Below are positions 1,624 to 23,797 of a DNA stretch of 29,717 nt, piece by piece. This DNA is from a virus (lineage: Duplodnaviria > Caudoviricetes). Below the pieces are notes generated by a model. That model searched no databases. It was not told the origin of the DNA and saw only the letters and a program-made list of their open reading frames with translations. The translations under genes were made by a program, and so were the position numbers. Location: IMG/VR virus record IMGVR_UViG_3300048848_000285, positions 1 through 29,717 of that record. The stretch is one strand, 5' to 3'. How positions within the stretch are numbered: position 1 is the first letter of the stretch; each line of letters starts with the position of its first letter.

Positions 1624-1809
1624 CTAGAGGCCGAAGGGGACGAGGAGGCCGGGCCCGTCGGCCAGGCGATCCAGCACGAAGGTGAAGGCTTCTCCGACGG
1701 TGAGGCTGACGAGGACGAGCGCGATCTTGCGCCGATCGGACATGCGCGGCGCGAGCGCGGCGGGCGTGCAGCGGTCGCAGCGGCAGGCGAGGGCGTGGAT
1801 GGCGGGCAT
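1624..1809 (-). CDS. Small hypothetical protein with HALACRCDRC motif and a hydrophobic segment
   Basis: ATG at 1809 directly after the upstream stop (1811-1813); tightly packed in the early operon. Confidence 0.55.
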   Translation of the reverse strand: MPAIHALACRCDRCTPAALAPRMSDRRKIALVLVSLTVGEAFTFVLDRLADGPGLLVPFGL

Positions 1810-1810
1810 G

Positions 1811-1939
1811 TCAGCGCCGATTCGCAAAGGCGCGCGCGAAGATCGCGGCGAGCAGGATCGGCGAGATCAGCAGCGCACCGGCCACTACGGCGAACATGCG
1901 GGCGCGGCGCCAGCGGCGGGGCTGGGCGGCGGCGATCAT
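1811..1939 (-). CDS. Small single-TM protein, 42 aa (MIAAAQPRRWRRARMFAVVAGALLISPILLAAIFARAFANRR); not in ORF track
   Basis: Hand-translated; ATGA overlap with the upstream gene; basic N-terminus then hydrophobic helix. Confidence 0.55.
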   Translation of the reverse strand: MIAAAQPRRWRRARMFAVVAGALLISPILLAAIFARAFANRR

Positions 1940-2355
1940 GCGCCCGGCTCCGCGGCGGGATGGCAGTAGGAGCAGTGGGTGGGCGTGGCCCAGCGGCGAG
2001 GCCCGCGCTGTTCCTCATCCCAGGAGTGCCAGGCGCTTGCTCCGCAGCCCCGACAGACGCGCGGGTGCGGGGCCGGGCCGGCGAGCTGGTAGTAGACGGC
2101 CGGGTCGAGCGGGTAGCAGGCGGCGAGCCGCTCGATCGGCCGCGCCTTGCGCGCGATCACCAAGTCGACCTCCAGCAGGCGGACGAATGCGCGAGCGGAC
2201 GGACGATCGGTGAAGGTCGGCGCGAGCAGGGTCGCGACATCCTCCACCGACAGACCGGCAGCCTCACGCCGCAGCCGCAGATAGGCGGCAGGGCGCAGGC
2301 GCGGCGCTTCGTCGGCGGGCGGCGCGGTGGTGGGCAGGATCAGGCTGTGCATCAT
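1936..2355 (-). CDS. XRE-like HTH protein with C-terminal Cys cluster
   Basis: YLRLRREAAGLSVEDVA (HTH start); CRGC...HCSYC possible Zn finger. Confidence 0.65.
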   Translation of the reverse strand: MMHSLILPTTAPPADEAPRLRPAAYLRLRREAAGLSVEDVATLLAPTFTDRPSARAFVRLLEVDLVIARKARPIERLAACYPLDPAVYYQLAGPAPHPRVCRGCGASAWHSWDEEQRGPRRWATPTHCSYCHPAAEPGA

Positions 2356-2467
2356 TGGGAGGACCTTCTTCACAGACAAGCGGGGGGCGTTCCCGGCGGC
2401 GGGGGAGCCGTGGCCGGGTGGCGGGAGCGGAACGGGGAAGGAGCGTGCGGCCCGGGGCCGCGTCAGA

Positions 2468-2803
2468 TCAGCCGCTCATGGCGGCGTCGGTGGGCGGTGA
2501 GGCAGGGTCGGCGTCGTTCGCCGGCTCCCGCGCGTCGTCGTTGGCGTGGCGGGGGCGGGTGCCGCCAAGCGCGGGATTGCCGACCGGCAGGTGGATGCCG
2601 GCGCGCGGCTTCGCGCTGGGGCGGATCGTGCGGATGACAGAGAGCTGCGCCACGAAGGTGTGGCCGCAATCGTCATCGTCGCAGCGATAGCGCAGCTCGC
2701 GCACCAGCGGCGACAGCTGCTCGCTGGTGCGGACCAGCGACCGCGCGCCGCAATGCGGGCAGTGGATGCTGGGAATTCGGTTCTTGCCAGTCGGCGCCTT
2801 CAT
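2468..2803 (-). CDS. ogr: Ogr/Delta-family zinc-finger late-gene activator (111 aa)
   Basis: CPHCGARSLVRTSEQLSPLVRELRYRCDDDDCGHTF matches the P2 Ogr C4 zinc-finger pattern; ATGA overlap with the upstream gene. Confidence 0.88.
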   Translation of the reverse strand: MKAPTGKNRIPSIHCPHCGARSLVRTSEQLSPLVRELRYRCDDDDCGHTFVAQLSVIRTIRPSAKPRAGIHLPVGNPALGGTRPRHANDDAREPANDADPASPPTDAAMSG

Positions 2804-3294
2804 TGGGCTCCCCCCATTTTCGTGGCGTTCGGCCCCGCGCCGAACGGCAGGAAAGTTCTGAGGCGCCGCATCAGCGCGCCCATGGCGCCGTGCGCCTCTT
2901 CGGCCTCCGCCAGGGCGCGGTGCACGTCGCGCTCGCCGGCGTTGGGCTTGATGACGGCAATGGTCGCCTCCGCCGCCTCGCCGAACTCGCGGGAGGCGCG
3001 GGCGAGATCGTCGGCAAGGCGCAGCTGGCAGGCGGCGTGCTGGGCGACTTCCTCGCCCAGCAGCTCGGCATAGACTTCGTAGAGCGGCGCGCCGTCGCCT
3101 CCCGCAGCGCGATAGGCCGCGTCGAGCGCGATCGCCTGGGGCAGGCTGGGCGCGAAGTCGCTGTCCGGGTCCATCCACTTGTAGATGCGGCGCTCCGCCC
3201 GTCCGGCGACCTTGGCCGCGAGCGGGACGCCGAGCACGCCGACGATCTTCGTGATCGCGTGCGGGATGGTGAGAGGGGTGCGCGGCTTGGTCAC
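2800..3294 (-). CDS. Phage regulatory protein, CII-like
   Basis: N-terminal HTH-like region (AAKVAGRAERRIYKWMDPD), helical C-terminus, position directly after cro. Confidence 0.6.
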   Translation of the reverse strand: MTKPRTPLTIPHAITKIVGVLGVPLAAKVAGRAERRIYKWMDPDSDFAPSLPQAIALDAAYRAAGGDGAPLYEVYAELLGEEVAQHAACQLRLADDLARASREFGEAAEATIAVIKPNAGERDVHRALAEAEEAHGAMGALMRRLRTFLPFGAGPNATKMGGAQ

Positions 3295-3605
3295 GGCCGC
3301 ACCGTGCGGGGCGAAATGGCGCGTCGATCGCCCGAGACGGTCGACGCGCCACCGCCTACCAAGTCCCCCGGCGCGGAAAGGGAAGCGGAGGGCTCGGCGG
3401 GATAGAGATCGGGGCGAAGCAGATGGCGGGAGACGCCGGTCGCGCGCTCAACGGTGAGGACGTGCTCGGCGGGAAGATGTTTGCGGTTGCGCAGCCACTT
3501 CCAGACCGCGGGCTGTGTGACGCCACACAGACGGGCGAACGCCGACTGCGAACCGGATCGTTCAACGGCGTGCTCGAGTGCTGTGGATGCGCCTTGCTGC
3601 GTCAT
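3291..3605 (-). CDS. Cro-like (YdaS family) HTH regulator
   Basis: GSQSAFARLCGVTQPAVWKW and VSRHLLRPDLY motifs; divergent from cI. Confidence 0.85.
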   Translation of the reverse strand: MTQQGASTALEHAVERSGSQSAFARLCGVTQPAVWKWLRNRKHLPAEHVLTVERATGVSRHLLRPDLYPAEPSASLSAPGDLVGGGASTVSGDRRAISPRTVRP

Positions 3606-3688
3606 AACCTCAGCTATGACGAAACTACTAAATGTGTCAAGTGGGAGTCTGCGCTTTGCCGCTATTACCGCGGTAATAGAGTGCGCCC
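3603..3688. promoter_or_regulatory. cI/cro divergent control region with operators
   Basis: Perfect 18-bp palindrome CTATTACCGCGGTAATAG (3662-3679); related CATAACCTCAGCTATG (3603-3618); TTGACA on the minus strand (3635-3640); TTGCCG..TAGAGT just before the cI ATG. Confidence 0.7.
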
Positions 3689-4345
3689 ATGACATTAGGC
3701 GAACGCCTCACAGAACGGCTTGCTAAGCGCGGTCTTTCGCAATCCGAGTTGGGCCGCCGGATTGGTGTGTCTCAGGGCACGATAGCGCATCTCGTGCGTG
3801 GCCGTTCCGTTGGATCGAAGCACCTCCACGCTATCGCGAGAGAGCTAGGCACTACGCCAGCGTACCTGAGCGGCGAGACTGACGATCCCTCTGAGGGAGC
3901 GTTGCCGCTGCCATCGCCGACTGTGATTGCGGAGCAACTCGATCTAGTCGAAATTCGCTCGATCGACTTCGCCTACGGCATGGGCGGCACCTTCGGCGAG
4001 GACCACATCGAGGAGGAAGTCCTGCACTTCCCCCGCAAGTGGATCCGGGCAATTACGTCCTCGCCAGCCCCATCGCTCACCTTTGCGCGGGGCAGGGGCG
4101 ACTCCATGGCCCCCACCATGAACGAAGGCGACGTAATCCTGATTGACCGCTCCCAGCGCACCATCCTGGAGCAAGACGCCATCTGGGCGCTGACCCTCGG
4201 CCCCATCGCCATGGTCAAACGTCTCCGCGTGAAGGGCGAGCAGGTAACCATTTTCTCGGATAACGACCGTGTGTTGCCCGATACGGTTCATGCCGACGAA
4301 CTTAACATCGTGGGACGCGTGGTTTTTGTGGGACGGCGTCTTTAA
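3689..4345 (+). CDS. cI: CI-type prophage repressor (XRE HTH + S24 peptidase)
   Basis: GLSQSELGRRIGVSQGTI HTH; GDSMAPT (catalytic Ser) and MVKRL (catalytic Lys). Confidence 0.93.
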   Translation: MTLGERLTERLAKRGLSQSELGRRIGVSQGTIAHLVRGRSVGSKHLHAIARELGTTPAYLSGETDDPSEGALPLPSPTVIAEQLDLVEIRSIDFAYGMGGTFGEDHIEEEVLHFPRKWIRAITSSPAPSLTFARGRGDSMAPTMNEGDVILIDRSQRTILEQDAIWALTLGPIAMVKRLRVKGEQVTIFSDNDRVLPDTVHADELNIVGRVVFVGRRL

Positions 4346-4346
4346 C

Positions 4347-4373
4347 TTGCGCGTTCCGCACGCCTGCTATTAT
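4347..4373 (+). promoter_or_regulatory. Possible sigma70 promoter for the cargo operon
   Basis: TTGCGC ... extended -10 TGcTATTAT upstream of the ATG at 4395. Confidence 0.35.
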
Positions 4374-4394
4374 CAGCGTTATAGGGGGGCGGTA

Positions 4395-4592
4395 ATGATC
4401 AACTTCATCAACAATCATGCAAGCGAGGTGTGGACCTCCGTAGTTTCGTTGATCGCAGGGTTTGCTGGCGGGTCCCTCGTGACATTACGTATTACGCGCA
4501 GCAACTCGGCGAGCGGCTCCGGCCAGGTAGTGAACCAAAGCCGATCCCGAGTTGGAGGCGATCAGATAGTCGGGGATAAGTACCGCCGGTGA
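4395..4592 (+). CDS. Small membrane protein (65 aa) with C-terminal motif shared with LmuA
   Basis: G-rich RBS-like stretch; hydrophobic VWTSVVSLIAGFAGGSLVTL; tail NQSRSRVGGDQIVGDKY; GTGA overlap with the next gene. Confidence 0.7.
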   Translation: MINFINNHASEVWTSVVSLIAGFAGGSLVTLRITRSNSASGSGQVVNQSRSRVGGDQIVGDKYRR

Positions 4593-4708
4593 ACCGTCTA
4601 CCGGCACCCGGAGGTGACCGCCTCCCGGCGGGGAGTTACCCTGCGCTTGGTGACATCGACCAGAGCCGATCCAAGGTCTCCGGCGACCAAGTCATAGGCG
4701 GGAAGTAC
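4533..4708 (+). repeat. Diverged 51-bp / 17-aa direct repeat (4533-4583 and 4658-4708) lying in two different genes
   Basis: NQSRSRVGGDQIVGDKY vs DQSRSKVSGDQVIGGKY, 11/17 identical. Confidence 0.9.
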
Positions 4709-5224
4709 CACGCGGGAGGGGACATCAATCTTACGACGGTAAACAGCGCTTCCCGGCAGGCGACCGTGCTGGAGCAACTGCTCGTGCGGCTCCATGAGGA
4801 GGTTGAGGGCAGGATTCACTGCCAAGACACTGTAGCTAAGTTACGGCGGTACCAAGGAGGCTCACGTTCAGACGATGTGATTGGGCTCGCTGCTAAGCTG
4901 CAGCGATCGGGGCGAGAGACGCACATCGATGACGCTTTAGAGCAAAAGGAAATGTTCTCTAAACTACTTGAAAGCTGGTCACTGTACGCTTCAGCTCAAG
5001 AGATATTCGTTCATCTTCTTGCTCGTGCTGAACATCTCTTTAAAAGTGAAATACACCCGGACGTAGGGCAGCTTTCAGTATCGGATGTCAATAGGTTGAT
5101 TAACAATCGGATAGTCGACCCGGTTGTTTTTGAGTGTGGTGCCACAATGCTTCAGATTGACCACTTGACCGCGATGGGCATGGTGTATTGGCTCGCAGAA
5201 CAATGCTTTATCCGGTGGCACTGA
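4589..5224 (+). CDS. lmuA: ABC-three-component/Lamassu CTD protein (LmuA-like) with no recognisable enzymatic effector
   Basis: GLAAKLQRSGR...SAQEIF and terminal GMVYWLAEQCFIRWH typical of ABC-3C C-terminal domains; precedes the middle component and SMC-like ATPase. Confidence 0.75.
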   Translation: MNRLPAPGGDRLPAGSYPALGDIDQSRSKVSGDQVIGGKYHAGGDINLTTVNSASRQATVLEQLLVRLHEEVEGRIHCQDTVAKLRRYQGGSRSDDVIGLAAKLQRSGRETHIDDALEQKEMFSKLLESWSLYASAQEIFVHLLARAEHLFKSEIHPDVGQLSVSDVNRLINNRIVDPVVFECGATMLQIDHLTAMGMVYWLAEQCFIRWH

Positions 5225-5225
5225 C

Positions 5226-5741
5226 GTGCTGACCTTTCAGCCTGCACTTGATCCCTTTCACGCGGTATTCCGATCCTTTCGGCTTCTCACCGCGTTGGAG
5301 GAATGTTCGCCGATTGAATGGGATAAGTACCGAGTACTCGATTTCTACCTCGCATTCCCATTCCGGGCCGCGGATTTCAAATTTCCAAAAGGGCAGACTG
5401 CTTTTCGGAAAGTCGCTAAAGCAATGGAATGGATGAGGCCCTATGGTGGTTTGCCGGACGATCAGGATCTCGTCGTCCGGATGGAGCCTGTGCAAAGTGC
5501 CGCCGTCCAGACACTGGCGAGCCTCGGCTACCTCGATCAGGACGCTCTCAAGGGCGGTGCGGTCGACTGGGGTGTCCGGCCCCTGCCGGATCTTCTGAAA
5601 GCTCGAATTCAAGAAGTGAATGGTGAACAGGCCGACCTAATGGTCATGTTATCCAGCCTTTGCTTGAGTGTTCCGTTGCTCGGACAGGACGGGATCAAAC
5701 GGAGGAGTGGCCTCTTGGAATACCGCAATGACGCTATTTAA
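5226..5741 (+). CDS. lmuC: ABC-three-component middle component (LmuC-like)
   Basis: MLTFQPALDPFHAVFR start, LDFYLAFP and GIKRRSGLLEYR; size and position between the CTD gene and the ATPase. Confidence 0.75.
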   Translation: MLTFQPALDPFHAVFRSFRLLTALEECSPIEWDKYRVLDFYLAFPFRAADFKFPKGQTAFRKVAKAMEWMRPYGGLPDDQDLVVRMEPVQSAAVQTLASLGYLDQDALKGGAVDWGVRPLPDLLKARIQEVNGEQADLMVMLSSLCLSVPLLGQDGIKRRSGLLEYRNDAI

Positions 5742-7641
5742 GCCGACGCTGATGGTCGAGCGCATGCTGGTCGAGCGGGACTCGCAGAGCGTGTACGATG
5801 AGATGTTCCACCGTGGTCTGAATGTTGTTCGTGGTGACAATTCGTCAGGAAAATCTACCGTCCTCAATTTTCTTTATTACGGGCTTGGGGGAGACTTGAC
5901 GGATTGGAGCGAGGCGGCGCGTTTGTGCTCCCGTGTTCTTCTGCAGGTGAACATCAATGGAGACACCGCTACCCTAGCGAGGGATGTCACCACAAAGGCT
6001 CGTCCCGCCATGGACATCTTCGCGGGTACGATTGACGATGCGCTTGAAGCTCCTGCGGCGAGGTGGCTTCGGTTTGGATATACCCGCTCCGAAAAGCGAG
6101 AGAGCTTTTCGCAGGCTCTCTTCAGACTCATGGATGTCCCAGAGGTTGCTACCGATCAGTCCGGGAATATCACGATGAATCAGCTTCTCCGCATCTTGTA
6201 TGCGGACCAGCTGAGTCCGGTGGAGACGATTTTAAAGTTCCAAGGAACTTTCGACAACGGTGACCTGCGCGATGCTATAGGGCGGCTGGTATTCGGCGCA
6301 CACTCTATTAAGTTCTATCAAAATGAGCAGGAACTGCGCAGGCTCGACAAAGACCTAGACCAAGTCATCGGTGAGTATCGCAGCCTGCTACACTTTGCCG
6401 GTGAAGCGGGGGAGGGCTTCACCTACGAGTTCCTGCAAGCAGAGCGATCGCGGCTGGAGAGGCTAGCCGCGGACCTTGCGGATCAGGTCCTTTCCATTGA
6501 AAGGTCTGGCGGTGCCGCTTCTGAGGATCAGCCCACTCTGCGCGGGCAAGAGCAAGCTTATGCAGCGGTTGTTTCTGCCCAGACTGCGTTAGCGGACGCA
6601 ATAGGTGAGCGAGACCAGCTAGCCCTTAAGATAGCAGACTCCGACAGATACCTAAAGGCTTTGAGGAACAAGCTCGAATCCCTACAAGACTCATCGATGG
6701 TCGCGGACGTCATAGGTGATGTTTCGTTCAGAGAGTGCCCTGCTTGTCATGCTGTGGTTGAGGAGCCCGACATCCCCCACGCGTGCTACCTCTGCAAAGA
6801 ACCTTTTGATGAGGGGCACGAGCGTGGTCGTATCATTCGACTGATGAACGAGACTGCGCTGCAAATTAACCAGTCCGAGGGTCTTCAGCGCCGCCGTATG
6901 GAGAGGGCGGGCAGTATAGATGAGGAGATTTCCCGTCTAACAAAGCTATGGCGGTCGGCGGCGCAACGTTATCAATCATCCGCGCGATCACCGACGACTG
7001 AAAGCCAGCTGCGCCTTCGGGAGCTTGTCCGGGAGTCGGGCTACGTCTCGCGCCAGCTTGATGAGCTATCCCGCCGAGAGAAATGGGCGGAGCGGCTTTT
7101 GATGCTCGCAGAGCGACGCGAGGAAATATCAGCGCGTATGGCTGGTTTACGAGCGGAGAACGAAGCGCTGGAGCGTGAGCAGCAGCACCGCCTAAACGTG
7201 GCCGCAACCGTTACCTCTGAAGAGGTGAAGGAGCTGCTCAGAAACGATCTGCGACGGCAGGACGTGTTTGAAGATCCCCGTTCGGTTAAGTTCAGCTTTC
7301 GTGATAACATCATATCGGTAAACGACGAAAACTACTTCTCCGCGAGCTCACGTGCTATCCTGAAAAGCAGCCTAACCCTTGGCTTGCTAGCGGCATCTAC
7401 AAAGTTAGAGTTTATGAGGCATCCACGTTTCTGCATGATAGACTCTCATGAAAATATGGGAATGGAGCCTGTTAGGAGTCACAACTTCCAGGAGCAGGTG
7501 CTTCGAGTTTCTCGGGAGAGCAAAGTGGAACACCAGATTGTTATAGGTACCGCGATGATCGCTCCAGAGTTAGATAGCGATGAGTTCACCGTAGGTCGGC
7601 ACTATACACGTGACCAGCCAGCGTTGGCGCTCCGCCTCTAA
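5728..7641 (+). CDS. lmuB: SMC/Rad50-like ABC ATPase (LmuB-like), 637 aa
   Basis: Walker A GDNSSGKST, long coiled coils, central CPAC...CYLC hook, degenerate signature FSASS, Walker B-like CMIDSHE. Confidence 0.85.
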   Translation: MTLFKPTLMVERMLVERDSQSVYDEMFHRGLNVVRGDNSSGKSTVLNFLYYGLGGDLTDWSEAARLCSRVLLQVNINGDTATLARDVTTKARPAMDIFAGTIDDALEAPAARWLRFGYTRSEKRESFSQALFRLMDVPEVATDQSGNITMNQLLRILYADQLSPVETILKFQGTFDNGDLRDAIGRLVFGAHSIKFYQNEQELRRLDKDLDQVIGEYRSLLHFAGEAGEGFTYEFLQAERSRLERLAADLADQVLSIERSGGAASEDQPTLRGQEQAYAAVVSAQTALADAIGERDQLALKIADSDRYLKALRNKLESLQDSSMVADVIGDVSFRECPACHAVVEEPDIPHACYLCKEPFDEGHERGRIIRLMNETALQINQSEGLQRRRMERAGSIDEEISRLTKLWRSAAQRYQSSARSPTTESQLRLRELVRESGYVSRQLDELSRREKWAERLLMLAERREEISARMAGLRAENEALEREQQHRLNVAATVTSEEVKELLRNDLRRQDVFEDPRSVKFSFRDNIISVNDENYFSASSRAILKSSLTLGLLAASTKLEFMRHPRFCMIDSHENMGMEPVRSHNFQEQVLRVSRESKVEHQIVIGTAMIAPELDSDEFTVGRHYTRDQPALALRL

Positions 7642-7679
7642 AGCACGCGGTGCTGAGTGATTGCAGAAGGGCAGTCGGG

Positions 7680-8417
7680 ATGTCTCCAACCTTTTTCGAT
7701 CCTGACGATCCCGAACTGCAGGATCGGGTGGCGAAAGCGATTTACGATACCCAAGTGGGTGATGCGCGCGAGAGGCTCGCCAAGTTCGACTTTCAGCTGC
7801 AGCGCGTTAGAAGCGTATTTGACGTGATGCATGCTGAAACGGATCGATCAGCATCGATATTGATATTTGCCCTAGCCGAAGACTTGATGCTTCATGCGTT
7901 ACAGCACAACATGCCCGGGGAGTGCCCAGGAGGATGGAAATCGGCGACGTCGGGCAACGGAGTCCTTGCTTCCGCAAACGATCGTATCTCCATCCTCGAA
8001 CTTCTGCGATGGATAACACCGCAGTCCGGTTCGCAAATACGCCTTCTCAAAGACATACGTAACAGGTTTGCGCATCATTCAGACGTCAGCGGCTTCGGAG
8101 ATCAGAAGATCCGTGGATGGATATCAAGCATGCTTCCGCTTGAAGCGCCGATTATAGAGATGCTAGCGAAAACTGAAGAAGACAAAGCTGTCAAGCCAAA
8201 GCCCCGTGATTTATTCGTTGTAAGATCGGCGCTGGTAGTCACCCGATTAATTAGCGACTTTGCTGTGCTTCCGGCAGCACAGGCCCGGCGTGTGTCACCC
8301 AATGACGTAATAGGCGGTGGCGATTTCGACAGGCTTCCTGAAGAAATCAAAGAACTCCGTCGTATTGCCGCCGACGTCGCTCTCCGGGTTCTTGGGCCAA
8401 CAGGTTGGCGACGGTAA
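7680..8417 (+). CDS. MtlR-like / HEPN-superfamily protein
   Basis: ETDRSASILIFALAEDL and IRNRFAH (RxxxxH). Confidence 0.7.
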   Translation: MSPTFFDPDDPELQDRVAKAIYDTQVGDARERLAKFDFQLQRVRSVFDVMHAETDRSASILIFALAEDLMLHALQHNMPGECPGGWKSATSGNGVLASANDRISILELLRWITPQSGSQIRLLKDIRNRFAHHSDVSGFGDQKIRGWISSMLPLEAPIIEMLAKTEEDKAVKPKPRDLFVVRSALVVTRLISDFAVLPAAQARRVSPNDVIGGGDFDRLPEEIKELRRIAADVALRVLGPTGWRR

Positions 8418-8542: not shown

Positions 8543-9193
8543 TTAGGCGGCCTCCAGCTTGACGCCGACCGTATAGCCCCGGTCCTTCGAGAGGCTGTGC
8601 GAAACCTCCGCGATCAGCCAGGCCACCGCATCGATCTCCGGCCGGAAGCCAGCCGTGGTAACCCGCCGCTCGGGGTAGAGATCCGCGCGGCCGAGCGCGA
8701 GCGTCAGCTCCAGGCTGAGCGGCTGCCGGCCGGCACGCGCGCGGGCGGCGGTGGCGGCTTCGCGCGCGGTCGCCTCGCTCGGGTAGACCTTGCGCAGGCG
8801 CTTGGCGCCGTTCTTGTCGCCGACGGTGACGCTCTCGCGCTTCGCACCCTTGCGGTCGTGCCAGCTGGCGGTGATCCCGGTCGCCTCGTCGCGCTTTTCG
8901 ATGCGGAAGCGGTGGCTGTCGCCCTCCCGCCGATGAAGGGTGAGCGACGGGATCGCGCCGCCGGTGGGCGTCACGCCAGCGCCCTTGCGGCTGAAGATGA
9001 GCAGACCCTGCTTGATGGTGGCGACCGCGTCGTGCTGGCGGCCGAGGCGGCGCAGGAAGGCGAGGTCGCTCTCTCGGCTCTGCGCGAGCGCAGGTACGGC
9101 TATGGCGGCCAGCGCAGGCGCGACGCGCGCGGTGAGCCCGTTGCGGCCGGCGAGCGCGGCTAGGACAGCGCCCAGCGTGGTGTCGTGCCAGCT
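8543..9193 (-). pseudogene. 5'-truncated P2 gpD-like late control/baseplate hub protein
   Basis: Frame extends upstream of the track ORF as SWHDTTLGAVLAALAGRNGL...QSRESDLAFLRRLGRQHDAVATIKQGLLIF, then abuts unrelated sequence. Confidence 0.8.
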
Positions 9194-9398
9194 AACCGAG
9201 CTTCGACAGGTCGCCCTTCAGCGTCTTGTTCGTCAGCTCCGAGATCGCCTCGATCGGGGTCTTGCCCTCGGCGTAGAGCTTCTTCAGCGACTTCGGCAGG
9301 TCGACGCCCATCTTCTTGAACGCGCGCACGGTCGCCGGCGACGTGATCTTCTGCAGGATGTTGCCGAGGTTGGTCGCGGCGGTGGCGCTGTCGCCGGC
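9192..9398 (-). pseudogene. Internal fragment of phage tail tape-measure gene
   Basis: Hand translation AGDSATAATNLGNILQKITSPATVRAFKKMGVDLPKSLKKLYAEGKTPIEAISELTNKTLKGDLSKLG*; no start of its own. Confidence 0.7.
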
Positions 9399-9580
9399 AT
9401 TCCCGGCTTCACGTTCTCAGTATCGCCCTCGCAGATCGTCCAGACGCCGACGATGTCGCGATAGGCGACGAGGTGCTCTTTGCCGCCGCTCTCCCAGCTG
9501 GAGACGAACGGCGCGACAATCGCGGCGGCGGCAAGGCCGATCGCGGCAATGGTGCGGGTCAGGCGCGCAGGTGAGGCCGC
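9399..9580 (-). pseudogene. N-terminal fragment of GH24 (SAR-type) endolysin
   Basis: Hydrophobic TIAAIGLAAAAIVAPFV followed by WE...AYRDIVGVWTICEGDT (E/D/T triad), then truncated. Confidence 0.8.
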
Positions 9581-10670
9581 GGCCGAGCTGCACTTCTTGG
9601 GCACCAACTTCCGCACCGCCCAGGGGCGCTCGGGCAACTTCTATTTCGACGAGTTCTTCTGGGTCCACGGCTTCGAGGAGCTGAACAAGGTCGCCTCTGG
9701 TATGGCGACGCACAAGCGGTGGCGGAAAACCTATTTCTCGACGCCGTCGACCGTGGCGCACCCGGCGCATCCGTATTGGACGGGCGAGCGGCGCAACCGG
9801 CGGCGCAAGAAGGAAGACCGGATCGAGATCGACGTCGGCCACGCCGCGCTGAAGGACGGCCGGCTGTGCGAGGATAAGGTCTGGCGCCAGATCGTCACGG
9901 TGCAGGACGCGATCAGCAGTGGTTTCGACCTGGTCGACCTCGACGAGCTGCGCGACGAATATGCCGAAGACGAATTCGCCAACCTGTTCGGGTGCGTGTT
10001 CGTCGACGACAGCCTGTCCGCCTTCAAGTTCAACGACCTGGTCAAGCTGGGCTGCGACAGCCTGGTCGAATGGGAAGACTTCGACCCCGAGGCAGCGCGG
10101 CCCTATGGCAGCCGCGCCGTGTGGGCGGGCTATGATCCGCAGAACAGCGAGACCGGCGACAATGCCGCGCTGGTGATCGCGGCACCGCCAGCGTTTCCGG
10201 GCGGGCCGTTCCGGATCCTCGAGCGCCACCAGCTGCGCGGGCTCGACTTCGAGCAGCAGGCCGAGTTCATCAAGGGCATGCTGTCCCGGTACAACTGCAC
10301 GTACCTGGGCATCGACGCGACCGGCGTCGGCGCCGGCGTCTACCAGCTGCTCGCCAAGCCTGAGAGCGGGATCAAGGGCGTCACCAAGATCGAATATTCG
10401 CTCGAGGTGAAGGCCGGCATGGTGATGAAGGCGCAGAACGTCGTGCGCCGCGGGCGCCTGGCGTTCGACAGCGGCATGCTCGACATCGTGTCGTCGTTCA
10501 TCTCGATCAAGAAAACCGCGACCACCAGCGGGCGCAACATCACCTTCAAGGCCGGGCGCGGCGGCGAGGACGGCCATGCCGACGTCGCCTGGGCGACCAT
10601 GCACATCCTCATGAACGAGCCGCTGGACGGCAAGGAAAAGCCCAAGGGCTCGATGGAGATCTTCGAATGA
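9580..10670 (+). pseudogene. 5'-truncated P2 gpP-like terminase ATPase subunit
   Basis: LHFLGTNFRTAQGRSGNFYFDEFFW, FSTPS, WAGYDP, GHADVAWA; Walker A half missing; first ~33 codons of track ORF 9480..10670 are antisense endolysin. Confidence 0.85.
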
Positions 10671-11725
10671 CGAAGCGGAGCAAGGTGCGGGCGATGTCGC
10701 GCGCGGAGACGGCCCAGGCGGCGACCGGCGCGCTGGTCGCGAACGACAACGGCCGCGCGATCGACGCCTTCAGCTTCGGCGATCCGGAGCCAGTGCTCGA
10801 CCGCCGCACGATCCTCGACATGCTCGAGACGTTCGACAACGGCCGCTGGTACGAGCCGCCGGTGCCACTGGACGGGCTGGCGCGCGCCTATCGCGCCAGC
10901 CCGCACCACAGCTCGGCGATTCAGCTCAAGCGCAACCTGCTGGTGAAGTATTTTGAGCCCTCGGCGCTGCTGTCTTCCAAGGACTTCACCGCCGCGGCGC
11001 TGGACTTCCTCATTTTCGGCAACGCTTATTTCGTGCGGCGGACGAACCGCCTGGGCGGCGTGATCCGGCTCGAGCACGTGCCGGCGAAATACGTGCGCCG
11101 CGGTGTCGAGCCAGGCATGTTCTGGTGGGTGCCGAACGCGCGCGAGGCGGAGCCGTGGGCGCCGGGCGAGGTGCTCCAGATCCAGCAGCCCGACATCAAC
11201 CAGGAGCTGTACGGCGTGCCGGAATATCTGAGCGCCCTGCAGTCGGCGCTGCTGAATGAGGCGGCGACGCTGTTCCGTCGCCGCTACTACCTCAACGGCT
11301 CGCACGCGGGCTTCATCCTGTACGCGACCGGCGAGATCGACACCAAGGACACCGATGCGCTGAAGACCGCGCTCAAACAGTCGAAGGGACCGGGCAATTT
11401 CCGGAACCTGTTCGTGCATGCGCCCAACGGCAAGGAAGGCAGCATCAAGATCCTGCCGATCGCGGAGGTAGGCGCGAAAGACGAGTTCCTGAGCATCAAG
11501 AACGTGACCGCCCAGGACATGCTCGCCGCACACCGCACACCGCCGCAGGTGCTCGGGATCGTGCCGGCGCAGGGATCGAGCGGGTTCGGCAATCCGCTGC
11601 AGGCGGCCGACATGTTCTTCGACTTGGAGATCGAGCCGCTGCAGGTGTCCTTCCGTGAGGTGAACGACTGGCTGGGCCGCGAAGTCGTGACATTCCGCGA
11701 GCGCCTGCCCGCCGCGGCCGCCTGA
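10667..11725 (+). CDS. P2 gpQ-like (PBSX family) portal protein
   Basis: FSFGDPEPVLD, WYEPPV, HHSSAI, YGVPEYLSALQSALLNEAATLFRRRYYLNGSHAGFI. Confidence 0.93.
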   Translation: MTKRSKVRAMSRAETAQAATGALVANDNGRAIDAFSFGDPEPVLDRRTILDMLETFDNGRWYEPPVPLDGLARAYRASPHHSSAIQLKRNLLVKYFEPSALLSSKDFTAAALDFLIFGNAYFVRRTNRLGGVIRLEHVPAKYVRRGVEPGMFWWVPNAREAEPWAPGEVLQIQQPDINQELYGVPEYLSALQSALLNEAATLFRRRYYLNGSHAGFILYATGEIDTKDTDALKTALKQSKGPGNFRNLFVHAPNGKEGSIKILPIAEVGAKDEFLSIKNVTAQDMLAAHRTPPQVLGIVPAQGSSGFGNPLQAADMFFDLEIEPLQVSFREVNDWLGREVVTFRERLPAAAA

Positions 11726-13188: not shown

Positions 13189-14565
13189 TTAGTTAGTCAC
13201 GTAGACCGGCCCGCCCGCAGCGCGGACGTAGAGGGCGCGGGTGCCGAGAGCGGCAACGGCGCTGTTGTTGTCGCCGTAGGTGGGAAGGCCATCCGGAACC
13301 CGGACGAGGCCCTCGAGCTGCGGGTTGCGCGCCCGGAAGCCAGGGGTGCCGCTGTTCGTGCCGCTCCGGAACACCGGATACGGGCTGCCGACGAGCATTG
13401 CGCCGTGACTAACGCGGAAGAGAGACGTCGGGGTGGGGCGGTTGGTGTCCGCCTCGATCAGCAGATTAGCACTGCCTGGATCGACGAAGTTATGCGCGAA
13501 TACGCCCTCCGGGACGAGCACGAGCGGAACGGTGTTATTCGCCGGCTTCAGCGTGTTCCGATCATACTTGATGTACGAGGCTTCACCACCCCTGGTGCCG
13601 AACAGAAATCCGGCCGTGGTGAAGCCGTCGATGAGATTGTCGAAAAGGCCGACTTCCATCGCGCCGCTTGCGCCGATACCTGTGGCACAGTTGCGGATGA
13701 TGTTGTCACAAACAACGATGCCGCGCGGCGTCCCGTGAATCTGGTTGATGTGGACGCCTTCACTTGACCCTTCGATCACGTTGTCCGCCACCAGGGTATA
13801 AGTGACGGTCTCGGGGAAGATGCCTACCCCGCGATTGTTGCGGCAGTGATTTCCGCGGATCGTCACACGTGCCGTAGTCGCCCCCTGAGCGCCACCCGAA
13901 TTGCTGTCCCCGTACACATCAATGCCGTTTTCGCCGTTGGAGTACACGGAGTTAGCGGAGATCATCAGGTCGATAGCCTGGCTGGACTGAATTCCGATGA
14001 AGGCATTGTCATGGACAATGCAGTTCTCAATCCAGAGATCATGCGCGAGGCTATTAGGCTGGCCTACGAGCTGAATGCCTTGGCCGAAACCATTGTACGA
14101 CGCGACCGCCTCGACACGGATACGGCTGCACGTGAGGTTGTCGAAATAACCGAAAAAGATGTTTCCGCCGTTCGCGGGCACAGGATTCACCTCGGGCGCG
14201 AAGCCGGGGATGTTGGCCCGGTTGCCGTCCACCGAGAACGCCTCGAGCGTTACGTCATCGAGGTTCTCCCCTGCGCCGATTACTCGCGCGATGGAGCCCG
14301 GGCCGGGGGCAGGGTCGTTGTCTCGGACTCGCAGGATAGTGCTGAAGCCGTCACCGATGAACTTGATGTGAGACCGCATCAACAAACAATACAGTCCTGT
14401 CACACCGGTCTTTGCCCGATAAGACAGCTTGTACGTGCCGGCCGGAACATAAACCGTCCCCCCGCCGGAGGACGCAACAGAGTCAATCGCACTCTGGATG
14501 GCGGCCGTATCATCGCTGACGTTGTCGCCTTTGGCTCCGAAGTCACGAACATTCACATACGACAT
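13189..14565 (-). CDS. Right-handed parallel beta-helix protein (pectate lyase-like superfamily)
   Basis: VNVRDFGAKGDNVSDDTAAIQSAID...GGGTVYVPAGTY N-terminus; repeated I/V-x-x-N stacks; AGGAG RBS. Confidence 0.88.
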   Translation of the reverse strand: MSYVNVRDFGAKGDNVSDDTAAIQSAIDSVASSGGGTVYVPAGTYKLSYRAKTGVTGLYCLLMRSHIKFIGDGFSTILRVRDNDPAPGPGSIARVIGAGENLDDVTLEAFSVDGNRANIPGFAPEVNPVPANGGNIFFGYFDNLTCSRIRVEAVASYNGFGQGIQLVGQPNSLAHDLWIENCIVHDNAFIGIQSSQAIDLMISANSVYSNGENGIDVYGDSNSGGAQGATTARVTIRGNHCRNNRGVGIFPETVTYTLVADNVIEGSSEGVHINQIHGTPRGIVVCDNIIRNCATGIGASGAMEVGLFDNLIDGFTTAGFLFGTRGGEASYIKYDRNTLKPANNTVPLVLVPEGVFAHNFVDPGSANLLIEADTNRPTPTSLFRVSHGAMLVGSPYPVFRSGTNSGTPGFRARNPQLEGLVRVPDGLPTYGDNNSAVAALGTRALYVRAAGGPVYVTN

Positions 14566-15999: not shown

Positions 16000-16047
16000 G
16001 GAATCATAATCCGCGTGTCGGGGGTTCAAGTCCCTCCTCCGCTACCA
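16000..16047 (+). tRNA. 3' half of tRNA-Met(CAT), att duplication (not a full tRNA)
   Basis: GGAATCATAATCCGCGTGTCGGGGGTTCAAGTCCCTCCTCCGCTACCA: CAT anticodon loop, T-arm and CCA; no D-arm or 5' acceptor strand upstream. Confidence 0.88.
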
Positions 16048-17648
16048 ACAGGCCCCCCACTGATACGCAGTGGGGTTTGGTCTGAGGACATCTGGAGCGA
16101 CATCAAGGCGTTAAGCGCCCCGTCGATCACCACACGCAAACCCTTCTGGCTCTCGGCGTCGCGATAGACCGTCACCCGGTGGACCAGTTCGCGGAAGGCG
16201 CTGGCCGCTTCGGTGTTCCCCTCGGCGATACCTTCATTCAACGCCTCGTGGAGGTTCTGGAGCTTCTGCTCGTACTGGTGCATCGCGGCCGGGTGCAGCG
16301 TCACCACGTTGGGCACCTCGTCGGCCCCAGCCAGCTCCTCCTTCAGCTGGGTCTTCTCGGCGCGCAGGACGTGCATGCGGTCGCCCACATCCTCCAGGGC
16401 TAGGTGGCCGCTCTGGATGCCGTCGATGATCCGATCCATGTTCCTCTGCACGGTCGCCAGCTTGCGCTCCAGGCTGGCGCGCTGCCCCATCGACGCCTGC
16501 GCGAGTCGCTTGCGCTCGGCCATGTACGTCTCGATGAACAGGGTCAGCCGCTTCGGCGTCTTCAGCTCGGCTACCAGCGTGTCGACCACCAGCCGCTCGA
16601 TCGTGTCGAGGTAGAAGCTCGCGGGGTCTGGGCAGATGCCGCTCTCAGCTGCAGCCGAGCACCGGATGCGAACCCGGCCTGACTTGTCGGTGCCCTTGGC
16701 GGACATGCCAGCGCCGCAGCAGCCGCACTTCAGCAGGCCTGACAGCAGACGCTTGGGTCGGTTCTGGAGGTGCGGGCGGATGCGGGTGCGATCCTGCTTC
16801 TGCGCCTGCACGGCGTCCCACAATTCCTGATCCACGATCCGGAGCTCGGGGAGGGGCCGTCGCTGCCACTTCTCGGGCGGATTGGGCCGGGAGATGCGGC
16901 GTCCGGTGTCGGGGTCCTTCACCATCTGCACGCGGTTCCAGACCAGCTCCCCGGCGTACAGCGGGTTGCGCAGGATGCCGTAGCCCCGCTCGCCGTTCCC
17001 GTTGATCGTGGAGGCGTTCCACTTATCGCCGCGGGGCGGGCGGATGCGCTGTTCGTTCAGGCTGTAGGCGATGCTGCGCGGGGACTTGCCCTCCGAGAAC
17101 TCGCGGAAAATGCGGCGGACGATCTCCGCCTCTTCCTCCACGATGATTAGCTTGCCTTTGTTGATCGGGTCGGGCGTGTAGCCATAGGATCTCCCCCCGG
17201 CGGACAGGCCCTGCTTGATCAGGCCCGTCATGCCGCGGCGTACCTTGTGGACGTTGTCCTCGCGCATCAGCTGGCCCACGAGCCCGCGCAGGCCAACCAT
17301 CAGCGTGTTCGCGGTGCCTTCGTGGACGGCGCGCAGCTCGATCCCGAGGAAGCTCAGCCGCTTGTGGATGCCCGCGAGGTCTTCCATGTCGCGTGAGAGG
17401 CGGTCCAGCGCCTCGACCACGATGACATCGAACTTCTTGCCCTGGGCGTCTTGCAGCAGGCTGAAGAGCCCGTCACGCCCCAGCATCGACGCCCCCGAGC
17501 GTGCCTTGTCATGGTAGGTGCCGACGACGGACAGACCCTCGCGCTCAGCGTAGGTCCGGCAGAGGTCGATTTGGTCTTCCGTCGAGCGCTCGTTCTGAAG
17601 GTCGGTGGAAAATCTGGCGTAGATCGCAGCGGCCGTAGCTTTAGACAT
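16026..17648 (-). CDS. Large serine recombinase (integrase)
   Basis: YARFSTDLQ (catalytic Ser), LDRLSRD, recombinase domain, LLSGLLKCGCCG Zn ribbon, coiled coil. Confidence 0.95.
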   Translation of the reverse strand: MSKATAAAIYARFSTDLQNERSTEDQIDLCRTYAEREGLSVVGTYHDKARSGASMLGRDGLFSLLQDAQGKKFDVIVVEALDRLSRDMEDLAGIHKRLSFLGIELRAVHEGTANTLMVGLRGLVGQLMREDNVHKVRRGMTGLIKQGLSAGGRSYGYTPDPINKGKLIIVEEEAEIVRRIFREFSEGKSPRSIAYSLNEQRIRPPRGDKWNASTINGNGERGYGILRNPLYAGELVWNRVQMVKDPDTGRRISRPNPPEKWQRRPLPELRIVDQELWDAVQAQKQDRTRIRPHLQNRPKRLLSGLLKCGCCGAGMSAKGTDKSGRVRIRCSAAAESGICPDPASFYLDTIERLVVDTLVAELKTPKRLTLFIETYMAERKRLAQASMGQRASLERKLATVQRNMDRIIDGIQSGHLALEDVGDRMHVLRAEKTQLKEELAGADEVPNVVTLHPAAMHQYEQKLQNLHEALNEGIAEGNTEAASAFRELVHRVTVYRDAESQKGLRVVIDGALNALMSLQMSSDQTPLRISGGPVGSGGGT

Positions 17649-18376: not shown

Positions 18377-19912
18377 ATGCCGACCTTACGATGGTTGACG
18401 AGGGACGATGACATCAGGGCTGCCGCGCATGTGCCCTACCGCCTGCTGGAGGAAGTCCCCGATCTCGGTCACGGCGATCGTGATAGCGTCAACATGCTTG
18501 TCCAGGGTGACAATCTCGATGCCCTAAAGGCGCTGCTGCCTTTCTATGCCGGGCAGGTGAAGTGTATCTATATCGACCCGCCCTATAACACCCGGTCGGC
18601 CTTCGAGCATTACGATGACAATCTGGAGCACAGCCAGTGGCTGGCGATGATCTGGCCGCGGCTGGTATTGCTGCGCGAGCTGCTGGCGGAAGATGGCAGT
18701 ATCTGGGTCAGCATCGACGATAATGAGGGTCATTACCTCAAGGTCGTGATGGACGAGGTGTTCGGGCGGCAGAATTTTATCGACACCGTTATTTGGAGGA
18801 AAAACTATTCTCCGAAATCAAGCGCGCGGCATTTCTCAGCGGACCATGATTATATCATAGTCTACGGTAAAAACTCCGACCGCTTTGTTCCAAATCTCAT
18901 GCCGCGCACCGAGAAGCAGGACCGCGCTTACAAGAACCCTGACAACGATGCTCGGGGGCCATGGAAAACCAGCGATCTATCTGCTCGCAATTTTTATAGC
19001 CTCGGTAAATATCCGATCACGTCGCCATCAGGTCGAGTGATCGCGGGACCTCCCGGTGGAAACTACTGGCGCGTTTCGGAGGAGAGGTTCTGGGAACTGG
19101 ACCGAGACAATCGAATATGGTGGGGAGCTAAGGGCGATGCCATACCCCAGATCAAGCGTTTCCTTTCGGAGGTAAAGCAGGGAGTAACGCCCCAGACCTT
19201 CTGGCCATACGAAGAGGTCGGTCACACACAAGACGCGAAGAAGGAGATACTCGCTCTCTTCGGGTCGGATGTATTTGGTACACCCAAGCCTGAACGGCTC
19301 ATGCAGCGTGTAATTCATATCGCGACCAACCCTGGCGATCTCGTGTTGGACAGCTTCCTCGGCTCCGGCACGACGGCGGCGGTCGCGCATAAGATGGGCC
19401 GTCGCTACATCGGTATCGAGATGGGCGATCATGCCGCGACTCATTGCCAGCCGCGCCTCAAGAAGGTCGTGGACGGCGAACAAGGGGGCATCTCCGAGGC
19501 GGTGAACTGGCAGGGCGGCGGCGGCTTTCGCTATTTCCGGCTGGGTGCGTCTGTGTACGACGAGAATGGGCAGATAAGTCCGGACATCGAGTTTGCGGTG
19601 CTAGCTGCGCATGTGTGGTTCTCCGAGACGCAGCAACCGTGGTCCCGGCCCGATCGGCTTTCGCCCGTTCTCGGCGTCCATGAGGGGCAGGCCTATGCTC
19701 TGCTCTACAACGGCATTTTGGGGGACAAGTCGGTGAGCGGCGGGAATGTGCTGACCCGCAAGACGCTGGCGGTGATCCGCGCTGCGTTGCCGGAGGGCTT
19801 CGCCGGGCCCGTCACTGTCTATGGCGAACGATCCGCGCTGTCTGACACTACGCGGGGGAGGGAGCAGATCAGCTTCAAGCAGACCCCCTATGACGTGAAG
19901 GCGCGGGCGTAA
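18377..19912 (+). CDS. mod: Type III R-M methyltransferase Mod
   Basis: YIDPPY, TPKPE, LDSFLGSGTT; 1-nt overlap with res. Confidence 0.93.
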   Translation: MPTLRWLTRDDDIRAAAHVPYRLLEEVPDLGHGDRDSVNMLVQGDNLDALKALLPFYAGQVKCIYIDPPYNTRSAFEHYDDNLEHSQWLAMIWPRLVLLRELLAEDGSIWVSIDDNEGHYLKVVMDEVFGRQNFIDTVIWRKNYSPKSSARHFSADHDYIIVYGKNSDRFVPNLMPRTEKQDRAYKNPDNDARGPWKTSDLSARNFYSLGKYPITSPSGRVIAGPPGGNYWRVSEERFWELDRDNRIWWGAKGDAIPQIKRFLSEVKQGVTPQTFWPYEEVGHTQDAKKEILALFGSDVFGTPKPERLMQRVIHIATNPGDLVLDSFLGSGTTAAVAHKMGRRYIGIEMGDHAATHCQPRLKKVVDGEQGGISEAVNWQGGGGFRYFRLGASVYDENGQISPDIEFAVLAAHVWFSETQQPWSRPDRLSPVLGVHEGQAYALLYNGILGDKSVSGGNVLTRKTLAVIRAALPEGFAGPVTVYGERSALSDTTRGREQISFKQTPYDVKARA

Positions 19913-22603: not shown

Positions 22604-22788
22604 GAGATAAAGCCCTTTCTTCGGCCGATTGAAGGCTCTGATAAGTGAGTGTTATCGCTGGTTAGAAGCCAGGAGGTGAAGACTTAGCTTTCTTTTGACC
22701 GGCGTCCGATATGCATTGACGTTACGCCCCTTTTCGTTGATCCACGTTGCGGCAGTCAGTGAGGGGGGCCGCGAAAGCGGTACTGGCT

Positions 22789-23766
22789 ATGGAGATTGAG
22801 CGCGAAAGCCTCGATGCAGTTTTGCATCAGCTTTATCAGGACATCGATGCGTACGGGCATCCACATGCCGGGTCGCGGGGCGAAACGCTTGAACTGCTGG
22901 GCGTGACGCTCCGAATTACCAATCCGCGAGCCAGGATCAGCCGCTCGGAGAACCGCGGCAAGCCCTTCAGCGCGCTGGGCGAGCTGCTCTGGTATTTGTC
23001 CGGTCGGGATAAGCTGGAATTCATCAAGCCCTATGTGTCGGAATACGAGAAGGAGGCCGTTGGTGGCATTCTCGAAGGTGCCTACGGGCCTCGGCTTCTG
23101 GCTATGCGCGGATCGATCGACCAATTAAAAAGCATCGAGACGCTGCTCCGGAGGAAGCCCGGTTCGCGGCGCGCGGTGGTGCAATTGTTCAACGCTGAGG
23201 ACATCGCCACCGATCACGTCGAAGTCCCCTGCACAACTACGCTGCAGTTCCACCAACGTGAGGGACGACTGCACATGTCGGTTACGCTTCGGTCCAACGA
23301 CGCATATTGGGGGCTCCCTCACGACGTGTTCTGCTTCACGATGATCCAGGAGATGATGGCTGGACGTCTCGGCGTTGAACTTGGCGAATACCATCACTTC
23401 GTCGGCAGCATGCACGTTTACAACGACCACCTTGCGGACATGAGGGCCTATCTCGACGAAGGCTTCCAGCAAGTTCACGCAATGCCGGCAATGCCCGAAG
23501 GAGACCCGTTCGACATCGTGGATAGCCTGCTGGCCGTCGAAGCAAGGTTGCGTGTCGGCGACCTGATCGAACCAGAGGAGGTGATGAGCGACCCCTATTG
23601 GTCGGATATCGTCCGGCTGCTGCAGGTGTTCTGGTCACGCAAACACGCCACCAACGTAGAGGACCACGTGCGGCGGCTGAACGGAATTCGCGCGCAACTA
23701 GTGTCGCCATCCTATGGGCCTTATGTCGACGGCAGGAAGGATCTGTCGATCCGCGCACGCGCCTAG
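22789..23766 (+). CDS. Thymidylate synthase / pyrimidine hydroxymethylase family protein
   Basis: GELLWYLSG, AYGPR, SRRA, catalytic PC, RSNDAYWGLPHD, GSMHVY. Confidence 0.88.
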   Translation: MEIERESLDAVLHQLYQDIDAYGHPHAGSRGETLELLGVTLRITNPRARISRSENRGKPFSALGELLWYLSGRDKLEFIKPYVSEYEKEAVGGILEGAYGPRLLAMRGSIDQLKSIETLLRRKPGSRRAVVQLFNAEDIATDHVEVPCTTTLQFHQREGRLHMSVTLRSNDAYWGLPHDVFCFTMIQEMMAGRLGVELGEYHHFVGSMHVYNDHLADMRAYLDEGFQQVHAMPAMPEGDPFDIVDSLLAVEARLRVGDLIEPEEVMSDPYWSDIVRLLQVFWSRKHATNVEDHVRRLNGIRAQLVSPSYGPYVDGRKDLSIRARA

Positions 23767-23797
23767 GCCAACTTTACACCATCGGAGAGCTAAATAG

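Follow-up and report, generated by a model that had tools for sequence, protein, structure and literature searches.

A conserved four-gene Lamassu variant in a provirus: an enzyme-less LmuA shares a co-varying motif with a small upstream protein and probably signals like an amyloid immune pair

The operon and its shared motif

A short Lamassu defense operon lies at positions 4,395 to 7,641 of an IMG/VR provirus record of 29,717 bases (IMGVR_UViG_3300048848_000285; the whole stretch is called the window here). Its LmuA-like adaptor carries no enzyme domain and repeats, close to its N-terminus, a motif found at the C-terminus of the small protein encoded immediately upstream. A preliminary description made from the sequence alone had read this pair as amyloid signaling in which activated LmuA would template the motif of a membrane protein. 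The four genes and the two motif copies, with lengths in amino acids (aa), are as follows.

4395..4592, plus strand: small putative membrane effector, 65 aa, with a glycine-rich hydrophobic helix at about aa 11-34 (S-xxx-G-xxx-G), a basic linker and the shared motif at the C-terminus
4533..4583, plus strand: effector copy of the shared motif, aa 47-63, 17 residues
4589..5224, plus strand: lmuA-like adaptor without an enzyme domain, 211 aa, with an N-terminal motif, a helical core and CTD9 (Pfam, aa 99-210, E 8.6e-32)
4658..4708, plus strand: LmuA copy of the shared motif, aa 24-40, 17 residues, followed by a partial second repeat at 4709-4729
5226..5741, plus strand: lmuC (ABC-3C middle component 5), 171 aa, matching Pfam MC5 over its whole length (E 1.8e-38)
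5728..7641, plus strand: lmuB, a short SMC-like ATPase, 637 aa (PADLOC LmuB, E 9.3e-41)

Rechecking the coordinates of the four open reading frames (ORFs), both motif copies and the overlap of the GTG start of lmuA with the TGA stop of the small ORF left the earlier account of them unchanged. A purine-rich site precedes the small ORF at 4383-4389. LmuB carries a Walker A motif at 5833, CxxC motifs at 6736 and 6784 and a Walker B of the form hhhhD-S at 7429. Published criteria for short Lamassu (PMC12663957) ask for an SMC-like LmuB, roughly 600 aa in length, in which Walker A reads Gx4GK[S/T] and Walker B reads hhhhD[Q/S/T/E], and CTD9 has been named as an LmuA family (bioRxiv 2025.03.14.643221). 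With an LmuB of this size and these motifs, an LmuC between lmuA and lmuB and a C-terminal domain of this kind on LmuA, the window operon is a member of short type II Lamassu; the enzymatic effector domain at the LmuA N-terminus is what it lacks. CTD9 is the only domain of LmuA, with no other family match and no match to any LmuA model in PADLOC, so that the reported lack of a nuclease, protease or Sir2 domain stands, as does the short N-terminus (59 residues precede the conserved helical core, where about 55 had been given before the CTD).

The upstream ORF had been called a hydrophobic helix. The 65-aa protein does have a helix and does end in the motif, and the hydrophobicity of that helix proved borderline (best 19-residue Kyte-Doolittle mean 1.62), which is why we infer, and do not take as given, that it is transmembrane. 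No family in Pfam, NCBIfam, PADLOC or PHROGs matches this ORF, and a small effector without a family model is easily missed in annotation. The single helix of the window protein matches neither 9h9v nor HetE-N, and a search of the Atlas with it gave only unnamed clusters with recognition below the bar. A search of 50,697 GenBank phage records gave no match, and a viral single-protein scan gave none either. Sequence searches of the PDB with the LmuA and small-ORF profiles returned nothing significant.

The two motif copies are identical at 11 of 17 residues, with different synonymous codons at five of the 11 (both figures held on recounting), and at 33 of 51 nucleotides (nt). Across 5,000 shuffles of both regions, the best 17-mer identity averaged 5.3 with a maximum of 10 and never came to 11. 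In an alignment of the effector copies (A2) the Q is invariant and the G-D, G and K are at least 90% conserved, and a profile-profile comparison of A2 with the LmuA-side alignment A1 gave a probability of 97.1% over 25 columns. A search with LmuA yielded 275 homologues of 103-331 aa; among the 119 listed besides the window's own, a motif of the Q-x6-G-D-x-V-G-x-D-K type starts most of the proteins, as judged by eye.

Conservation of the pair and exchange of partners

Related loci were fetched with LmuA-core peptides only, giving 58 genome loci and six viral loci, mostly from Alphaproteobacteria with some Lysobacterales. The hidden Markov model that scored the small ORF was seeded from the fetched loci; the fetch itself was independent of that ORF. 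Apart from three loci without upstream DNA, all 61 have the small ORF, which bears out the co-occurrence expected of a functional pair. It is intact and adjacent in 57 (L027 and L059 being duplicates among these), intact but split off by an insertion in lmuA in one, interrupted by an in-frame stop in one and frameshifted in two. Of the 139 loci with at least 900 nt of downstream sequence, 133 have lmuC there and 135 have lmuB. In four whole genomes (3.6-10 Mb) the small-ORF profile matches two places each, the ORF and the N-terminus of its own LmuA. A single fused ORF in homologues, which the preliminary description had named as evidence against a pair, occurs in none of the 61 loci, and a frameshift or fusion origin is rejected on this count; a search for longer LmuA forms also found none, although this is weak evidence. 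LmuAs of the Sphingomonas type (256-262 aa; L001 at 3315-4103, P0011, P0022, P0026 and others) are extended at the N-terminus by a low-complexity stretch and repeat parts of the motif two to three times in tandem. These were considered as fusions and rejected: the extension is not hydrophobic, and L001, which was seen in context, keeps its upstream small ORF.

The small proteins of this family are 53-74 aa long, and their profile retrieves 300 clusters at 50% identity. Their median hydrophobicity is 1.57, with 25 of 57 at 1.6 or above. A small-xxx-G-xxx-small pattern is present in 53 of the 57 and a strict GxxxGxxxG in 34, and net charge is more positive after the helix than before it in every one, which suggests a cytoplasmic tail. 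Over 62 close pairs the mean synonymous difference (pS) is 0.67 and the mean nonsynonymous difference (pN) 0.10, indicating purifying selection, with the proviso that pairs were picked at 75% identity or more, a choice that itself pushes pN low.

The window motif is one of several. An unbiased search for CTD9 in 401 Pseudomonadota genomes put six proteins over the cut-off. Four are short LmuAs that have a partner, the fifth is an LmuA bearing a hydrolase and has none, and the sixth is a bare CTD (L065). CTD9 was found in two of 301 genomes of one order and, among 400 sampled Gammaproteobacteria, in none besides the centre genome, a result confined to the genomes sampled. One of the four short LmuAs, that of locus L066, carries another motif, whose counterpart is in a 97-aa protein with two helices, and a search following this motif led to 84 loci, many of them near-duplicates. 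Upstream DNA is insufficient in eight, LmuA is 388 aa long in one, and the other 75 have short LmuAs; of these 75, all 74 that were checked have an upstream partner with a matching tail (65 found automatically and nine by inspection, with L134 left out). Counting the window's single helix, there are at least six partner types: three have two transmembrane (2-TM) helices and distinct motifs, one is Bell-like, and one is represented by L135. The Bell-like partners are 112-122 aa long with an N-terminus of the 'MEPIS' kind, and HetE-N occurs in 11-24% of members of their nearest Atlas clusters, which is a lead only. In L090, L091, L094 and L158-L160, the tails of the 2-TM partners contain two or three repeats of an N-x-I-x-x-N type, like the rungs of a beta-helix, against a single copy in LmuA, a pattern like the two-repeat/one-repeat arrangement of HET-s and NWD2.

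The L135 partner links this family to a known system. In Bab, a shared motif of about 20 aa is described as passing activation on, through amyloid templating, to an effector that targets membranes (bioRxiv 10.1101/2024.11.07.622273). The upstream partner in L135 is a Bab homologue (PDB 9h9v 'Babybass', E 1.6e-11, with GapS6a and HetE-N also over the cut-off) that retains Bab D2, G11, Y14 and D15. Its Q-D-N spacing is that of Bab Q92/D99/N100 as given in the Bab paper, which is the BASS11 spacing (0, +7, +8). At its N-terminus the LmuA of L135 has a motif of the kind that opens the large partners of Bab-family genes in E. coli, Buttiauxella and Pseudomonas; downstream of this lmuA come lmuC and the beginning of lmuB. 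The analogy with amyloid signaling drawn from the window alone is strengthened by this Bab homologue in the same slot, beside an LmuA with a matching motif. The large Bab-family partners themselves (851-930 aa; L166 at 4070-6862, L167 at 3827-6595 and L169 at 1779-4334) start with a BASS11-type motif and have no Pfam match.

No motif pair was seen in six CTD9 LmuAs that have a large N-terminal domain, namely L129 and five hydrolases, one of which is frameshifted. In L129 (515-2681) a 388-aa CTD9 LmuA stands behind a gene of the metallo-beta-lactamase fold. It is probably a Hydrolase-Protease Lamassu, a kind in which the effector is activated by cleavage. On the tree L129 is placed inside the motif-coupled clade, pointing to exchange between enzymatic and motif coupling.

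Motif co-variation and a proposed mechanism

Co-variation was measured on 66 representatives with less than 75% LmuA core identity, spanning six types; automatic pairing left out L035, L043 (frameshifted lmuA), L059 and L161 (duplicates) and 25 further loci. The score of the tails with their own LmuA N-terminus was 54.1 versus 30.4 for permuted partners, a level that none of 20,000 permutations reached, and the best match other than the own partner was of the same motif type in 64 of the 66. Significance against shuffled tails (p<0.01) was obtained for 63 of the 66 tails, versus none with a control window in the LmuA core. The excess persists within the window's type (59.2 versus 45.3, p 2e-5) and within 2-TM types (p 0.008 and 0.011), so that the expected co-variation with the LmuA motif holds both across and within types. 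Set against the three nearest LmuAs, the own LmuA wins 47 and loses 18 of 66 comparisons (p 1e-5). Mapped on the LmuA tree, eight type labels require eight changes; the types largely coincide with clades, and type-level matching therefore represents a handful of events, not dozens. Among tree-independent pairs, a G/R position shifts in parallel in 5.8 of 7 and in opposition in none (median p 0.03), two further positions agree in 4/4 and 3/3 pairs, which are too few for significance, and two are uninformative. This test left out 4 of 58 rows, the window included, and L008, L021 and L054 were mis-registered, which weakens the signal.

The codons speak to the level at which the motif is maintained. 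Where residues are identical, the same codon is used in 123 of 285 cases for own pairs (43%) and in 2,845 of 7,038 for foreign pairs (40%). Codon sharing is thus no higher between own partners, which indicates that matching is maintained at the protein level by selection on the peptide, and a recent DNA duplication or gene conversion is rejected. The five synonymous differences in the window, from which selection on the peptide had first been argued, prove little taken alone; the family-wide test agrees with that argument. The same comparison bears on the idea that the repeat has no role as protein and is either a feature of the DNA or RNA or what is left of a gene that was split or duplicated. 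The 33 identical nucleotides of 51 in the window and the overlap of the two genes suit such an origin, which is nevertheless very improbable given the codon result, the purifying selection on the small ORF, the recurrence of unrelated motifs as matched pairs and the failure to find a fused form in the loci searched.

In composition, the tails are richer than the LmuA core in G (15 versus 4.5%), N (10 versus 3.7%) and V (9.4 versus 6.5%) and poorer in L (1 versus 10.6%) and P (0.9 versus 2.1%), with K higher. BASS motifs are reported to be enriched in G, N, Q, V and I and depleted in P, L and K (Dyrka et al., bioRxiv 10.1101/2020.01.06.895854). The G/N/V-rich, P/L-poor character of the tails follows this bias in part and is counted here for the amyloid reading. 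The pairing is a real, conserved and co-evolving feature of these operons, visible in gene content, in conserved adjacency, in the sharing and protein-level co-variation of the motif, and in the exchange of the small gene, including for a Bab homologue. Co-occurrence, absence of fusion and co-variation, the computational tests that had been named for the amyloid interpretation, all came out in its favor, and this Lamassu variant probably signals like an amyloid immune pair.

We consider it likely that the four genes constitute a short Lamassu in which killing has moved from LmuA to the small protein, with DNA-triggered LmuA oligomers templating the motif of a membrane death effector. Structural papers on other Lamassu describe LmuA as held monomeric by LmuBC, released on sensing of DNA ends and oligomerized through its CTD. 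By extension, LmuBC in the window would keep LmuA monomeric, sense the ends of foreign DNA and release it. Free LmuA would then oligomerize through its C-terminal domain, a step established for CTD7 LmuA and for CTD9 only predicted in print, where CTD9 lipase LmuAs are modeled as dimers and larger rings (bioRxiv 2025.03.14.643221). Clustering would let the N-terminal motifs fold into a cross-beta structure on which the matching tail of the small protein is templated, and clustered glycine-zipper helices would damage the inner membrane, leading to abortive infection and protection of the lysogen. The Bab paper proposes oligomerization of the receptor as the nucleating step (bioRxiv 10.1101/2024.11.07.622273), and release followed by oligomerization would provide just such a step, from which templating between LmuA and the small protein is suggested.

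Several observations weigh against this reading. The LmuA oligomers known so far are small (tetramers) and perhaps a poor nucleus. The helix is borderline hydrophobic and, unlike Bell or Bab, has no helical sheath that would hold the effector inactive. The window motif is not BASS11, since its Q and G-D stand one residue farther apart (D at +8, followed by Q), and hhalign gives only a 7% probability for its match to the L135 Bab homologue; the Bab link itself is one metagenomic contig. Within the Bell-like type co-variation is not significant (p 0.28), the own partner ranks first for only 19 of 66 and within the top five for 39, and of five positions tested on independent pairs one reaches p<0.05, uncorrected. 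In the tails Q is about equal to the LmuA core and I is lower, with no enrichment of either. Finally, L065 (1039-1848) encodes an LmuA of about 160 aa that is CTD9 only and lacks both the motif and the small ORF; it sits behind fragments resembling helix-turn-helix (HTH) proteins and could be a counter-example or a remnant.

The same wiring could also operate without amyloid, if an LmuA oligomer bound a few tails by in-register addition of beta-strands or beta-solenoid rungs and the resulting finite complex clustered the effector. Homotypic matching would suffice for this, and matching is all that the sequence data show; Lamassu oligomers are finite, and the repeated tails of L090, L091, L094 and L158-160 resemble the turns of a beta-helix. 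We nonetheless regard a finite complex as unlikely. The slot also holds a Bab-family effector, from a family shown to need amyloid conversion according to the Bab paper (bioRxiv 2024.11.07.622273), and although sequence alone cannot separate the two possibilities, the Bab homologue tilts the odds toward amyloid. Alternatively, the small protein might serve as a membrane anchor, or might cap and thereby inhibit a toxic polymer of LmuA, with killing by LmuA or an unlinked effector. Its very small size and weak hydrophobicity fit such a role, and a cytoplasmic tail on a membrane helix would suit a tether. LmuA, however, has no other domain able to kill, the ORF downstream of lmuB is not conserved across loci, soluble Bab and Bell-like proteins fill the same slot, and enzyme-bearing CTD9 systems have no such gene, all of which makes an anchor or inhibitor quite improbable.

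Amyloid templating between LmuA and its partner, if true, would have consequences beyond this operon. On balance we favor the view that enzyme-less Lamassu, which probably correspond to the published Clade O, are a widespread class whose DNA-end sensor, of the SMC type, acts through amyloid templating on interchangeable effectors (one-helix, 2-TM, Bell-like and Bab), with at least five or six motif families, most of them apparently undescribed, and in which the 65-aa protein of the window would be a minimal amyloid-gated membrane effector. This would answer the printed puzzle of how a Lamassu with a 'seemingly lost' effector can work. It would also join SMC/Rad50-like DNA sensing with amyloid signal transduction, which are unlinked in the literature searched, and would add a DNA sensor, from unicellular Proteobacteria, to the NLR and TGP receptors of bacterial amyloid signaling. 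These loci also supply several naturally matched pairs of motifs and a candidate membrane effector of very small size.

Provirus setting and comparison with known systems

The operon starts 49 nt past a CI-like repressor gene on the same strand. The landmarks of the provirus are listed below.

1-1191: integrase
3291-4345: Cro/CI region
3689..4345, plus strand: CI-like prophage repressor (Pfam HTH_3 and Peptidase_S24; PHROG 4)
9480-11725: terminase and portal region

The guanine-plus-cytosine (GC) content is lower across the operon (53-56% at 5-8 kb) than on either side (66-73% at 0-4 kb and 9-12 kb), which together with the position after cI is as expected for prophage cargo. A lysogen would presumably co-transcribe the operon with cI; a promoter scan came out at chance level. 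The closest relative is the Sphingomonas locus L001 (LmuA core 61% and LmuB 60% identical). At 8543-11725 a tail-protein fragment (PHROG 52, C-terminal part) abuts an N-terminally incomplete terminase and an intact portal gene, and the prophage looks degenerate or rearranged, with most structural genes apparently missing and the defense operon intact.

Directly after lmuB, at 7650-8417 on the plus strand, lies an ORF of 245-255 aa with no match in Pfam, PADLOC, NCBIfam, PHROGs or the PDB. It contains an R-N-x-x-A-H stretch, which may resemble that of HEPN/MtlR-type proteins. As a component of the system it is rejected, being absent as a conserved neighbor of other lmuACB genes and weakly matched (E 7e-4) in one duplicated locus; it is perhaps a second cargo gene. 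Farther along, a thymidylate-synthase-like gene, an aGPT-Pplase3/ADDT gene (E 2.6e-123) and an HTH-IrrE gene at 22747-25860 adjoin a type III restriction-modification pair at 18377-22551, a DNA-modification or defense island outside the phage genes. The minus strand encodes a beta-helix (pectate-lyase-like) protein at 13189-14565, a large serine recombinase at 16026-17648 and a DUF488 protein at 27988-28533 (PADLOC PDC-M45B, E 1.5e-42).

Comparison with other Lamassu places the operon in the CTD9-MC5 class of short type II systems, with which it shares the lmuA-lmuC-lmuB order and an LmuB of about 600 aa with Walker A, hhhhD-S and CxxC. Its closest published counterpart by gene content is Clade O, where an LmuA without an effector domain likewise stands beside intact lmuC and lmuB. 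The Clade O LmuA is said to have 'seemingly lost the effector domain' and comprises more than 100 sequences from more than 40 species (Haudiquet et al. 2025, PMC12663957). The window differs in its conserved fourth gene, which shares a motif with LmuA; the main text of that account mentions no upstream gene, and the window family may explain the effector-less clade. The claim that this variant had no known description therefore holds in part: an enzyme-less LmuA is already in print, and the upstream partner and shared motif were not found there. In the literature searched, no paper connects Lamassu with amyloid motifs or with a membrane effector encoded upstream (ABC-3C neighbors may figure in Krishnan et al. 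2020, outside that scope). The word 'amyloid' does not occur in the main text of PMC12663957, bioRxiv 2025.03.14.643221 or bioRxiv 2025.09.30.679545, a 2026 review of signaling amyloids (PMC13506858) has no mention of Lamassu or SMC, 'ABC' and 'SMC' are absent from the Bab paper (bioRxiv 10.1101/2024.11.07.622273), and Millman et al. list only enzymatic Lamassu effectors in the corresponding part of their account. In Hydrolase-Protease Lamassu, LmuA activates an effector that has its own gene upstream (PMC12663957), a layout also seen in L129 and, on the reading favored here, in the window; the coupling there is enzymatic, and LmuA here has no catalytic domain.

Outside Lamassu, there is a close likeness to Bab/Agp (BASS11; GapS6 family). 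Both are prophage cargo with adjacent genes, effector first, a motif of about 20 aa at the effector C-terminus and receptor N-terminus, and an N-terminal hydrophobic helix with an early acidic residue. As the Bab paper describes that system, its receptor is a TPR-GreA/B-PIN protein, whereas here a Lamassu adaptor under an SMC DNA sensor takes the receptor's place, and the window effector is a bare helix with neither the Babybell bundle nor detectable Bab homology. The window also resembles the BASS1-10 Bell/NLR pairs as characterized by Dyrka et al. and the fungal HET-S/NWD2 pair in its collinear genes, which often overlap in those pairs too, and in part of its motif composition (G/N/V-rich, P/L-poor), and one CTD9 subgroup has Bell-like partners as BASS pairs do. 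The differences are that the receptor is a CTD9 LmuA and not an NB-ARC/NACHT NLR or TGP protein, that the hosts are unicellular Pseudomonadota and not of the multicellular phyla described for BASS1-10, and that the effectors include one-helix and 2-TM proteins. Of the marks of a BASS-type pair, the window has a matching motif at the effector C-terminus and receptor N-terminus of adjacent collinear genes; a Bell/HeLo-like bundle is absent from the window, occurs in L135 only and is a lead for the Bell-like subgroup. Because its receptor and effector families differ and its motif is not of the BASS11 kind, the window system probably works like Bab/Agp and the BASS pairs without being a member of either.

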